Assembly (NCBI RefSeq): GCF_002854065.1
Contig: NZ_CP024147.1
Direction: 5' to 3' (one strand)
Length of the DNA: 64,000 nt
Origin: Escherichia coli
Lineage (GTDB): Bacteria; Pseudomonadota; Gammaproteobacteria; Enterobacterales; Enterobacteriaceae
In this document: positions 2,589-64,000 of the stretch, one piece after another
Layout: each line of letters starts with the position of its first letter
Numbering within the stretch: position 1 is the stretch's first letter
Position numbers and translations under genes: made by a program
The notes under the pieces: model-generated
Database searches by the model: none
Told to the model about the DNA's origin: nothing
Seen by the model: the letters and a program-made list of their open reading frames with translations, nothing else

Positions 2589-4597
<2,009 letters not shown>

Positions 4598-12952: not shown

Positions 12953-13091
12953 GATCTTGGTGACTTCGGGGGAAACAATCAGCCAGGCCTCTGCCCGGAT
13001 GGATAGCGCGCCATAATACATCAGCGCGATGAGTCACGCCAACGCCCACGCGCGGAAAGCGACGCGGACGCTGGGTTTTTAATCAGTTGCG

Positions 13092-59360: not shown

Positions 59361-59529
59361 TGTAGACCGGATAAGACATTATCGCCTTCTCCGGCAATTG
59401 AAGCCTGATGCGACGCTGAACGCGTCTTATCAGGCCTACGGGAAGCACCGATGTAGGTCGGATAAGGCGCTCGCGCCGCATCCGACAAGCGATGCCAGAT
59501 GCGACGCTTGCGCGTCTTATCAGGCCTAC
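59361..59529. repeat. REP/BIME cluster between sucB and sucC
   Basis: Three to four REP units read directly. Confidence 0.8.
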
Positions 59530-59614
59530 GGGTGACCGACAATACCCGGGAGCGATACGAAATATTCGGTCTACGGTTTAAAAGATAACGATTACTGAAG
59601 GATGGACAGAACAC

Positions 59615-60781: not shown

Positions 60782-61650
60782 TGTCCATTTTAATTGATAA
60801 AAACACCAAGGTTATCTGCCAGGGCTTTACCGGTAGCCAGGGGACTTTCCACTCTGAACAGGCCATTGCATACGGCACCAAAATGGTTGGTGGCGTAACT
60901 CCAGGTAAAGGCGGTACTACCCACCTCGGCCTGCCGGTGTTCAACACCGTGCGTGAAGCTGTTGCTGCTACTGGCGCTACCGCTTCTGTTATCTACGTAC
61001 CAGCACCGTTCTGCAAAGACTCCATTCTGGAAGCCATCGACGCAGGCATCAAACTGATTATCACCATCACTGAAGGCATCCCGACGCTGGATATGCTGAC
61101 CGTGAAAGTGAAGCTGGATGAAGCAGGCGTTCGTATGATCGGCCCGAACTGCCCAGGCGTTATCACTCCGGGTGAATGCAAAATCGGTATCCAGCCTGGT
61201 CACATTCACAAACCGGGTAAAGTGGGTATCGTTTCCCGTTCCGGTACACTGACCTATGAAGCGGTTAAACAGACCACGGATTACGGTTTCGGTCAGTCGA
61301 CCTGTGTCGGTATCGGCGGTGACCCGATCCCTGGCTCTAACTTTATCGACATTCTCGAAATGTTCGAAAAAGATCCGCAGACCGAAGCGATCGTGATGAT
61401 CGGTGAGATCGGCGGTAGCGCTGAAGAAGAAGCAGCTGCGTACATCAAAGAGCACGTTACCAAGCCAGTTGTGGGTTACATCGCTGGTGTGACTGCGCCG
61501 AAAGGCAAACGTATGGGCCACGCGGGTGCCATCATTGCCGGTGGGAAAGGGACTGCGGATGAGAAATTCGCTGCTCTGGAAGCCGCAGGCGTGAAAACCG
61601 TTCGCAGCCTGGCGGATATCGGTGAAGCACTGAAAACTGTTCTGAAATAA
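60781..61650 (+). CDS. sucD: succinyl-CoA synthetase alpha subunit
   Basis: 289-aa [27 protein letters not shown]...; start overlaps the sucC stop. Confidence 0.96.
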
Positions 61651-61749
61651 ATATCTGTAATAAGAAATAGCCCTCGCCGCTTCCCTCTACAGGAATGGCG
61701 AAGGGCTGTCGGTTTCGACATGGTTGGCCATCGTATGATGGCCTTTTTT
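61651..61749 (+). ncRNA. sdhX: SdhX (RybD) small RNA derived from the sucD 3'UTR
   Basis: About 100 nt immediately after the sucD stop, with a GC stem (agccctcgcc...ggcgaagggct) and a terminal hairpin ggccatc-gtat-gatggcc plus T6; placement matches the known 3'UTR-derived sRNA; 5' end not determinable here. Confidence 0.6.
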
Positions 61750-62316
61750 ATGCCTTAAACGGTTAACCACGGTCGAAATCTGACTGCAGGCTTGACTGCA
61801 TGACCACAGCCACTGTGGATTGCCGCAACCGACCGCAAGCCACGAATAAGAACGACGGCGAATTTCGAATCGTTACCTGATGCACTGGCTTCCCAGCGTT
61901 TGACCGTAGCGTTAAGTAAATCAACAAAAGCGATGTTCACCGCTTTTCGTCAAGTCGTGCCATTTGTCAGCCAGGATCGGGTCTTTACCCCGGATATTGC
62001 AGCATCGCAAAAATTCTTAGAGGGATATGCTATAAATCAAAAATAAAATCTTTGTTGATTGTTTATCATAATATCCACAGATATGATAAATGATATCAAT
62101 TTAATAATTTTCACTTAATGTGATTCCGGATAATTCGAAAGGCGCTGTGCTTTTCGGATTATTATTATCTGATTAAGATATTTGTCACGCCAGGCTTACT
62201 GGTTTATAAATGTCAATCATGATTCTTATAAATTATTTATTGCTGCTTTGGTTACCATTACTTCGTAATAAGTAATGTATTTTTGATTGTTTAAACTATT
62301 TTTAAGGGACGGCATT

Positions 62317-62416
62317 ATGCGAGGGAAAATACCTAAAACGGAACTGCTGGTGACTTTTGAGGTCGTCGCACGTCATGAAAGTTATACCAGAGCGGCAGAG
62401 GAGTTAGCGTTAACCC
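62317..62416 (+). pseudogene. 5' fragment (33 codons) of a LysR-type transcriptional regulator, truncated by IS1
   Basis: ATG preceded by AAGGGA; MRGKIPKTELLVTFEVVARHESYTRAAEELALT is a LysR-family HTH start; reading frame runs straight into the IS1 terminal repeat at 62417. Confidence 0.7.
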
Positions 62417-62431
62417 GGTAATGACTCCAAC

Positions 62432-62935
62432 TTATTGATAGTGTTTTATGTTCAGATAATGCCCGATGACTTTGTCATGCAGCTCCACCGATTTTGAGAA
62501 CGACAGCGACTTCCGTCCCAGCCGTGCCAGGTGCTGCCTCAGATTCAGGTTATGCCGCTCAATTCGCTGCGTATATCGCTTGCTGATTACGTGCAGCTTT
62601 CCCTTCAGGCGGGATTCATACAGCGGCCAGCCATCCGTCATCCATATCACCACGTCAAAGGGTGACAGCAGGCTCATAAGACGCCCCAGCGTCGCCATAG
62701 TGCGTTCACCGAATACGTGCGCAACAACCGTCTTCCGGAGCCTGTCATACGCGTAAAACAGCCAGCGCTGGCGCGATTTAGCCCCGACGTATCCCCACTG
62801 TTCGTCCATTTCCGCGCAGACGATGACGTCACTGCCCGGCTGTATGCGCGAGGTTACCGACTGCGGCCTGAGTTTTTTAAATGGCGGAAAATCGTGTTGA
62901 GGCCAACGCCCATAATGCGGGCGGTTGCCCGGCAT
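62432..62935 (-). CDS. insB: IS1 InsB (expressed as the InsAB' transposase by -1 frameshift)
   Basis: 167-aa ORF; slippery TTTAAAAAAC on the coding strand (T-run 62873-62878 on plus). Confidence 0.93.
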
Positions 62936-63129
62936 CCAACGCCATTCATGGCCATATCAATGATTTTCTGGTGCGTACCGGGTTGAGAAGCGGTGTAAGT
63001 GAACTGCAGTTGCCATGTTTTACGGCAGTGAGAGCAGAGATAGCGCTGATGTCCGGCAGTGCTTTTGCCGTTACGCACCACCCCGTCAGTAGCTGAACAG
63101 GAGGGACAGCTGATAGAAACAGAAGCCAC
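62854..63129 (-). CDS. insA: IS1 InsA
   Basis: 91-aa [46 protein letters not shown]... Confidence 0.95.
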
Positions 63130-63184
63130 TGGAGCACCTCAAAAACACCATCATACACTAAATCAGTAAGTTGGCAGCATCACC

Positions 63185-63655
63185 CACCACGATTTGCAAA
63201 ATTTCATTGTGCGCCATGGCATCGACAATGCTGGTGGGGAAAGCATGCGAAATAAATACTTTTAGCGTAAAGGGTTCTGCCGCGACCACTCCGGTGGTTT
63301 CGGCACCGTGTGCAACAAAATTAATTCCTGTACCTGGCATGAAGAAATTTACCGTTATCAAGCCTAAGGCAATTGACAGCAATGAGGCGCAAATAAATAA
63401 AAAGAGTGTTTTAGAAAAAATACGACCAAGGGCTTTGGCATCGCCCATTTTAGCAATACCTACCACCAGGGTAGAGACCACTAACGGAGCGATAATCATT
63501 TTTATCAGTCGTAAGAAAATCGTCGTGAATATCGATATTTCTTGCGCATAGAGTTTTGCGGTTTCCGGTGAAGCAGTGTTATTGAGCACTACGCCGATAA
63601 TCATTCCAAGTACCAGCGCCAAAAGAATCATCGTGGTTAAACTTATTTTCTTCAT
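63185..63655 (-). pseudogene. 5' part (~157 codons) of a sodium:dicarboxylate symporter (DAACS) family transporter gene, 3' end replaced by IS1
   Basis: MKKISLTTMILLALVLGMIIGVVLNN...IFLRLIKMIIAPLVVSTLVVGIAKMGD resembles the conserved N-terminus of GltP/GltT/DctA-type carriers; GGAGG RBS; frame runs into the IS1 end. Confidence 0.7.
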
Positions 63656-63700
63656 TTTTTCCTCCATCAGGTGCACGGCGATAAATCAGAATCAGGAGAA

Positions 63701-63732
63701 GTAGATGCCTGAATAGAGATTCAGGCATCTAC
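63701..63732. repeat. perfect 14-bp inverted repeat with 4-nt loop
   Basis: gtagatgcctgaat-agag-attcaggcatctac read directly; lies in the leader upstream of the truncated transporter gene. Confidence 0.6.
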
Positions 63733-63815
63733 CTGCTATTACAACCTTACAAATAGCTGAAGTGTTGAACTGCAATAAGTGACGGGATGTCAGTTGGCTA
63801 AAAGTATTCGGATTT

Positions 63816-64000
63816 TTACAAATCGAAACTCATATTTAATAAAGGTGCATGTTGCTGTGCACCATAGACATCATTGTCACCTACATTCCCGGAGATAATA
63901 TCTCGTGGCATGACGATTTTTACTGCGTTAGAAGGATCAAACCAGACAATACGATGAATAAAGTCAGGTTCAACATGATATAAGCGCGCAATCAGTTCTG
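63816..64000 (-). CDS. 3' end of an unidentified ORF that starts beyond the window end
   Basis: Open reverse-strand frame to the window edge ending ...ELIARLYHVEPDFIHRIVWFDPSNAVKIVMPRDIISGNVGDNDVYGAQQHAPLLNMSFDL; same strand as and upstream of the transporter gene; family not recognised. Confidence 0.4.
   Translation of the reverse strand, partial: ELIARLYHVEPDFIHRIVWFDPSNAVKIVMPRDIISGNVGDNDVYGAQQHAPLLNMSFDL

Follow-up and report, generated by a model that had tools for sequence, protein, structure and literature searches.

A predicted mRNA hairpin, conserved across enterobacterial genera, between the DUF4387 and transporter genes of the Escherichia coli methylaspartate cluster

The right-hand end of a 64,000-nucleotide stretch of Escherichia coli DNA (NCBI RefSeq assembly GCF_002854065.1, contig NZ_CP024147.1; hereafter, the window) carries parts of two genes and, in the 160-nt gap between them, a perfect inverted repeat, which is the main subject of this report; all the features of this finding lie on the minus strand. 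The first gene in the direction of transcription codes for a DUF4387 protein and the second one for a GltP-like dicarboxylate/amino acid:cation symporter, interrupted by an IS1 element. The fragment belongs to the already described methylaspartate-pathway glutamate-fermentation cluster of O157:H7-type E. coli strains, broken in this genome by IS1. Among 5426 complete E. coli genomes, 1123 match the 814 bases to the right of IS1 (63187-64000) with 99.9-100% identity; they include O55:H7 and O157:H7 (99.9% over 814 bp for the latter), and this identity spans the DUF4387 gene, the gap, and the 5' part of gltP. In the intact cluster, the order is glmS-glmL-glmE-mal-atuA-DUF4387-gltP-fumD-cobO, followed by a convergent lysR, the whole being located between cydA and sucD; glmS-glmL-glmE encode glutamate mutase, mal encodes methylaspartate ammonia-lyase, atuA an AtuA/DUF1446 protein, and fumD a class I fumarate hydratase. 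From this set, fumD, cobO, and most of lysR are missing in the window, and the upstream genes lie beyond its end. The methylaspartate cluster was described in O157:H7 and other Enterobacteriaceae, its fumarase was characterized as the mesaconase FumD, and the DUF1446 protein is given as "of unknown function" in the figure legend (Kronen & Berg 2015, Fig 5; PMC4682846).

An earlier reading of this stretch, made from the letters only (the sequence-only reading), had noted upstream of the transporter gene, and on the same strand, an open reading frame that enters from beyond the window and stops at 63816, to which it gave no identity. This reading frame is real and in frame: its 3' part occupies 63816..64000 (minus), with the last 60 codons and a TAA stop at 63818-63816, and continues past the window. 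Translation from 63998 to 63816 gives 60 open codons ending in ...NVGDNDVYGAQQHAPLLNMSFDL, the other two minus-strand frames being rich in stops and closed. Moreover, the product can be named at the family level, as DUF4387. The 60-residue fragment matches Pfam PF14330 with an E value of 6.4e-18 and 65.7 bits, for a gathering cut-off of 27 bits and a score of 134.3 bits for the full-length orthologue, and an identical protein is present in RefSeq as a 105-residue DUF4387 domain-containing protein (WP_000813947.1). A literature search on the function of DUF4387 and DUF1446 found nothing relevant. Also, a contig labelled as a metagenome-assembled genome (MAG) of Collinsella sp. (JAIJJM010000101.1) encodes a DUF4387 protein with 100% identity and carries the E. 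coli version of the intergenic region, including the hairpin; given this identity to the E. coli locus, the contig probably represents E. coli DNA that was wrongly binned with an Actinomycetota MAG.

The inverted repeat (63701..63732, minus; helix P3 in what follows) is formed by the arms GTAGATGCCTGAAT and ATTCAGGCATCTAC, at 63701-63714 and 63719-63732, with a complementarity of 100% and 4 nt between them, just as the sequence-only reading had described it. It is the longest perfect short-loop inverted repeat of the 19 detected in the 64-kb window. On the mRNA (minus) strand, it reads G-GUAGAUGCCUGAAU-CUCU-AUUCAGGCAUCUAC-U, where the closing G.U brings the 14 perfect pairs to a stem of 15, six of them being G-C; the 36 nt fold with a predicted free energy of -23.2 kcal/mol, and a fold of the 181-nt intergenic RNA gives a z-score of -2.7 against shuffled sequences. 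A spacer of 83 nt (63733..63815) separates the DUF4387 stop from the hairpin, and another 45 nt (63656..63700, UUCUCCUGAUUCUGAUUUAUCGCC...), comprising a U-rich tail and a leader with a Shine-Dalgarno sequence (GGAGG, 63661-63665), separate the hairpin from the ATG of the transporter gene (63655-63653). With its G-C-containing stem on the transcribed strand, the structure has the stem-loop of an intrinsic terminator. The tail after the stem, UUCUCCUGAUUCUGAUUU (UUCUCCUG), is U-rich and interrupted, with four U in the first eight positions, whereas the terminator scan asks for at least five U in eight; hence, the full hairpin is absent from the scan results, missing the U-tract threshold by a single U. 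The earlier statement that this is not a typical intrinsic terminator is thus correct. Its companion, that no U-tract is adjacent, holds in that the tail falls below the terminator threshold, but goes too far for a tail with half of its first eight positions being U, and "poor U-tract" would be a better description.

A genome-wide search with the DUF4387 protein gave 58 loci, and the alignment used here (A2) contains 36 intergenic regions from about ten genera. The gap measures approximately 170 nt in Citrobacter, Klebsiella, Raoultella, Enterobacter, Lelliottia, Pluralibacter, Buttiauxella, and Salmonella enterica subsp. arizonae and diarizonae, all with a 15-17-bp hairpin at the E. coli position and a largely different stem sequence (GGCGUGCGYCUGAGC...GCUCAGGCGCACGCC). 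RNAalifold recovers P3 from the 36 sequences (columns 90-104 / 116-130), with 13 of the 15 pairs changed on both sides and 93.6% of the cells paired. For the whole structure, pairing is 94.7%, falling to 27-40% when the partner is slid by 1-3 columns, and the covariation score is reached by none of 500 column shuffles, a statistic that takes no account of phylogeny. For example, a comparison of E. coli with Citrobacter braakii reveals seven double compensatory substitutions in the stem, the outer part of which is GUAGAU in E. coli and GCGUGC in Citrobacter, with complementarity kept. The non-Watson-Crick cells of P3 are also informative, being 57 for G.U versus 12 for A.C, with G.U at 14 pair positions and A.C at six. 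A G.U on the coding strand corresponds to A.C on the opposite strand and to a mismatch in DNA; therefore, this excess indicates that selection acts on the sense-strand RNA rather than on a DNA operator or an antisense transcript.

A covariance model built exclusively from 32 Citrobacter-type sequences, without E. coli, has its best hit in the 64-kb window at 63666-63762 (minus), at full length and with 19.6 bits. With a rough E value of 0.08, the match would be marginal alone, but it is convincing given its position. A partial and non-significant match of this model (15.3 bits, E value of about 0.9) is found at 13039-13074 (minus), in a GC-rich (0.75) hairpin that is probably an unrelated terminator or REP-like (repetitive extragenic palindromic) stem. 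The compensatory changes and the strand-specific G.U pairs, both from phylogeny-blind statistics, indicate a conserved structured RNA, and the hairpin is best described as a predicted sense-strand mRNA structure that is homologous across genera. This supports the earlier suggestion of a processing or regulatory structure.

Departures from the common form are observed in several genomes. Escherichia sp. MOD1 has a shorter version of the hairpin. In Citrobacter amalonaticus S646 (2940-3070), P3 is degraded beside an insert, with a score of 24 bits compared with approximately 100 in intact copies; this strain and Klebsiella oxytoca NBRC 105695 (2816-3010) carry structured inserts of ~115-200 nt in the same intergenic region, which we take to resemble the enterobacterial repeats of ERIC (enterobacterial repetitive intergenic consensus) type. 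In Enterobacter sichuanensis WCHECL1597 (~3080-3090), an in-frame stop after about 33 codons of the transporter gene (...NNMASADIAK*) suggests a pseudogene, the RNA element being intact (102.7 bits).

Within E. coli, the 36-nt hairpin query matches only the 1123 cluster-bearing genomes, with one locus in each. The two places reported per record are most likely one locus that, as a perfect palindrome, is matched on either strand: records that exactly match imperfect variants show one place. Exact 40-mer matches give the perfect form in 610 of the cluster-bearing genomes. The commonest variant (316 genomes) has an A-to-G change in the 3' arm that converts a U-A pair into U.G, and 31 further genomes combine it with two changes in the loop. 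A pair-breaking C-to-G, leading to a G.G mismatch, accounts for only 11 of the 477 one-mismatch genomes. Among the remaining ~155 genomes, two were sampled, one with an A-to-G in the 5' arm (A-U to G.U) and the other with an A-to-T that gives U.U. Thus, close to half of the genomes have an imperfect DNA palindrome, and the RNA stem is intact in all exactly counted variants except the 11 with C-to-G. The constraint on the stem is not absolute because pair-breaking alleles exist.

Regarding function, the reading that we favor, at about an even chance of being right, is that the hairpin acts as an intercistronic decay barrier or a leaky terminator bounding two expression blocks. The enzyme block glmS-glmL-glmE-mal-atuA-DUF4387 would end before the hairpin and the block gltP-fumD-cobO would begin after it. 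With its strong stem and the interrupted U-rich tail behind it, the hairpin would stop a fraction of the transcripts and/or, after endonucleolytic cleavage in the AU-rich tail, would block 3'-to-5' exonucleases and protect the upstream segment; the outcome would be different levels of the enzyme segment and of the transporter-fumD-cobO segment. In the genome analyzed here, where the downstream block is destroyed by an IS1-associated deletion of 4 kb, only the upstream role could still matter.

Several observations at this junction point to such a boundary. The corresponding gaps of Yersinia alsatica and Morganella morganii contain, on this strand too, consensus-grade terminator hairpins (CGGUGCAUUGUGCUGCCUGAUGCACCG-UUUUUUCUAU and CGAUUUCAGAAACAGAAAUCG-UCAUUUUUCU, respectively). 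Also, Escherichia whittamii and Escherichia sp. E1V33 have no transporter gene, with fumD directly after DUF4387, and show (2816-3110) a strong hairpin ~33-72 nt past the DUF4387 stop, to which the covariance model aligns weakly (15.5 bits). The description of the hairpin as part of the transporter leader is therefore not established: because transporter-less lineages keep a hairpin after DUF4387 and other genera have terminators at the junction, it may just as well form part of the upstream block's 3' end. On the other side of the downstream block, the cobO-lysR spacer of the O157:H7 locus (L001, 12999-13031; deleted in the window) contains a canonical 11-bp GC-rich hairpin, CUGCGCCUGGC...GCCAGGCGCAG, followed by GUUUUAC, which is likely the true terminator of the operon; besides it and the hairpin described here, no other strong structures were seen inside the cluster. 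Because no sigma-70-like promoter was found on the coding strand of the E. coli gap, the transporter block would probably be read through from upstream.

Some results weigh against this boundary function. A literature search by locus tags (ECs0757-0762, Z0887-0892) found no transcript data for the locus and nothing beyond the work of Kronen & Berg. The E. coli tail, with its four U in eight, falls short as a terminator, and the Citrobacter-type tail, ACCCUACAC, which is not rich in U, did not pass the terminator scan either (C. braakii); therefore, termination cannot be the general function. The Pseudescherichia gap also falls short in its U-tract. Moreover, Citrobacter-type genomes have a longer element with unpaired blocks more conserved than third codon positions, which a plain decay barrier leaves unexplained, and Pseudescherichia-type genomes keep the flanking blocks without P3. 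Pair-breaking alleles circulate in E. coli, with G.G in 11 genomes and U.U in at least one. Finally, palindromes can stay symmetrical by templated (quasi-palindrome) mutation without selection.

The longer element offers the best surviving alternative. In Citrobacter-type genomes, P3 is the inner helix of a three-helix element (~2816-2990; alignment columns 27-63 and 76-156). The upstream hairpin P1 (columns 27-35 / 55-63) has double changes in five of eight pairs and 55 G.U versus seven A.C, and P2 (GGUUGG/CCARCC), which encloses P3, is 96.6% paired in the 32 Citrobacter-type sequences, with 31 G.U versus no A.C and one-sided changes only. Just 5' of the hairpin, the unpaired block A, AUUCAUGCGGUUGGUCACAACAGG, shows a major-allele frequency of 0.91 with 54% of its positions invariant; in the neighboring DUF4387 gene, third codon positions reach 0.76 and 11%. 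Variation is free in the hairpin loop (0.64) and in a downstream spacer (0.57). Conservation extends to CCCUACA, 3' of the hairpin, and to UUUAUCCGAUGGAG at the ribosome-binding site, and GAUGGAG is invariant across the alignment. Pseudescherichia-type genomes keep, together with the flanking blocks, a P2-like helix. Rfam 15 was searched with 61600-64000 of the window and with the corresponding gap of five further genera, and neither produced a match at E values up to 1. When metagenomes were scanned for block A (TTYATGCGGTTGGTCAY), 120 loci were obtained, nine of them with the rest of the element and all nine in the DUF4387-gltP context, the others being chance 17-mer matches. As for other uses of this region, a small open reading frame running through the hairpin from an ATG in block A was considered and rejected, the ATG being missing in E. 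coli and loop indels of 1-2 nt shifting the frame between species, and, in Citrobacter-type sequences, inspection by hand for an internal promoter turned up no more than weak and unconvincing -35/-10 candidates.

These features open the possibility, which we consider a minority one, that the hairpin is the P3 core of a cis-regulatory leader RNA of ~110-150 nt (P1, P2 around P3, and the conserved blocks) for transporter-fumD-cobO, the E. coli copy being a reduced version. Such a leader, in an equally tentative extension, would respond to a metabolite of the pathway or be bound by a regulator, and would control translation or read-through, thus coupling the transporter and the mesaconase to glutamate fermentation. 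Covarying stems beside conserved unpaired nucleotides are the look expected for a ligand- or protein-binding leader, and an element that no Rfam family covers is found only before this transporter gene. Nonetheless, P2 has no double compensations, the blocks could equally be DNA signals (promoter or operator), and neither a ligand nor an expression platform or alternative pairing with covariation support could be identified for the element. E. coli itself is a difficulty: P3 is kept there, but P1 and most of the blocks are gone, P2 being weak at best; its rows break P1 in the RNAalifold and pair-count analysis, and the stretch corresponding to P1 and block A of the Citrobacter type has diverged within the 83-nt spacer. 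Besides, a leader for the transporter does not account for the lineages that keep a hairpin after DUF4387 without having that gene.

A less probable explanation, and in our view an unlikely one, is that the palindrome has no selected function and persists by intrastrand templated self-correction, covariation being a by-product. The short version in MOD1 resembles a central deletion, which leaves a palindrome automatically, and the pair-breaking E. coli variants, the degraded stem of C. amalonaticus S646, and the lack of the hairpin in Pseudescherichia-type genomes would fit with the absence of selection. However, a process acting on DNA predicts A.C to be as frequent as G.U, against the 12 and 57 cells observed, and in roughly ten genera the stem holds its position, with a loop and a neighboring spacer that vary freely.

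It is still harder to sustain, and quite improbable, that the palindrome serves as the DNA operator of a dimeric regulator, for example the LysR-type protein of the cluster or an anaerobic regulator, governing an internal promoter of the transporter gene. A perfect dyad of 14+14 bp, 45 bp before the transporter start codon, would suit this role, the cluster has its own LysR regulator, and flanking blocks are conserved in other genera. Nevertheless, operators evolve otherwise than the outer stem, which has been replaced between E. coli and Citrobacter with its complementarity kept. G.T is present in the 316+31 E. coli genomes and, at one pair, in 17 of 36 species, breaking the DNA symmetry and keeping the RNA pairing, and there is no promoter-like site nearby on the coding strand. 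The even spacing would also be incompatible with a symmetric T-N11-A box of LysR regulators.

Lastly, membership of a dispersed repeat family, REP/BIME (bacterial interspersed mosaic element) or a similar extragenic palindrome, to which an extragenic palindrome without a strong U-tract could have belonged and which the sequence-only reading had named as the finding that would overturn it, is refuted to near certainty by copy number: a single locus in each of the 1123 genomes, found in cluster-bearing genomes only, and no further copy in the window, where the 14-mer with up to two mismatches occurs solely as the two hairpin arms (0.30 matches expected by chance).

The boundary reading concerns an operon that is decaying in this genome. 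The transporter gene retains its first 471 nt (63185..63655, minus; 157 of 426 codons), as seen by BLAST against the O157:H7 locus and RefSeq, before being cut by IS1; the full-length orthologue matches the Pfam SDF family (PF00375, DAACS) with an E value of 2.8e-102. The IS1 element (62417..63184, 768 bp, insA/insB on the minus strand), recognized by its open reading frames and matches to the IS1B family, links transporter codon 157 to nucleotide 100 of the LysR-family regulator gene, the first 100 nt of which (62317..62416, plus) remain. Compared with O157:H7 (L001 junctions 9816 / 13838), 4,021 bp are missing, comprising the 3' part of gltP, fumD, cobO, and lysR beyond its first 100 nt. Both junctions together are found in no complete E. 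coli genome of the collection. Strains CUWW06 and 100416, the closest relatives over the first 50 kb of the window, have other arrangements: CUWW06 has an intact cluster and an IS1 in the sucD-lysR spacer, and 100416 has an IS1 in place of DUF4387 that ends within the 5' arm of the hairpin. EC2641 carries an independent IS1 deletion with other end points, keeping 411 nt of lysR and 273 nt of the transporter gene. Because these events differ from that of the window, IS1-driven decay of the cluster is recurrent, and the repeated independent deletions suggest its loss in some E. coli lineages.

The sequence-only reading had also called the fragment acquired-looking and foreign to the K-12 layout after sucD. 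The second point is confirmed, K-12 having sdhX-mngR-mngA-mngB between sucD and cydA, with homology to it stopping near 61757 of the window; in 1123 of 5426 genomes (~21%), the cluster takes the place of mngR-mngAB. With respect to the first, the cluster is accessory by its distribution, but its composition does not support acquisition, the coding GC being 0.50-0.56, as in E. coli, with an AT-rich segment only in the flank toward cydA. Because the cluster is widespread in related genera and E. coli-like in GC, loss elsewhere is as possible as gain here. In the same region, the sucB-sucC spacer (59369-59566) contains ~200 nt that are present in the window and K-12 and missing from the O157:H7 locus, which corresponds to an indel polymorphism.

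The gene content of this locus was already known, and the fragment itself adds little to it. What is new is that the hairpin is neither a chance palindrome nor a REP but would be an RNA structure under selection in about ten genera, placed at a putative internal boundary of the operon, and that outside E. coli, it lies inside a larger conserved structured element absent from Rfam. If this larger element were regulatory, it would help to establish when B12-dependent glutamate fermentation is turned on in pathogenic and commensal enterobacteria. The hairpin is most likely a further case of a well-known type of element, the intercistronic stem-loop or leaky terminator, and no earlier description of it was found.

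A comparison with the cluster of Kronen & Berg (2015; PMC4682846) reveals the same order of mal, DUF1446/AtuA, small DUF gene, GltP-type transporter, FumD, cob(I)alamin adenosyltransferase, and LysR regulator, and the same position between sucD and cydA; the differences are the decay of the window copy, with 4,021 bp removed including fumD and cobO, and the intergenic hairpin, which goes unmentioned in the passages searched. With REP/BIME sequences, the hairpin shares being an extragenic palindrome within an operon and differs in being single copy and limited to cluster-bearing strains. The stem-loops of intrinsic terminators and leaky intra-operon attenuators are likewise stable, lie on the sense strand, and are followed by a U-rich tail. 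However, the E. coli tail has four and not at least five U in eight, the Citrobacter-type tail is not U-rich, and a stem of 14-17 bp is longer than usual for terminators. Finally, stem-loops that stabilize mRNA between cistrons are represented by the malE-malF hairpins of E. coli and by the puf operon of Rhodobacter. The malE-malF structure is a REP repeat with hundreds of copies, whereas the hairpin described here is present in single copy. Nonetheless, it shares with these stabilizers a stable hairpin without a good U-tract between cistrons, followed by an AU-rich stretch, and as in those systems, an unequal abundance of the two segments would be expected.

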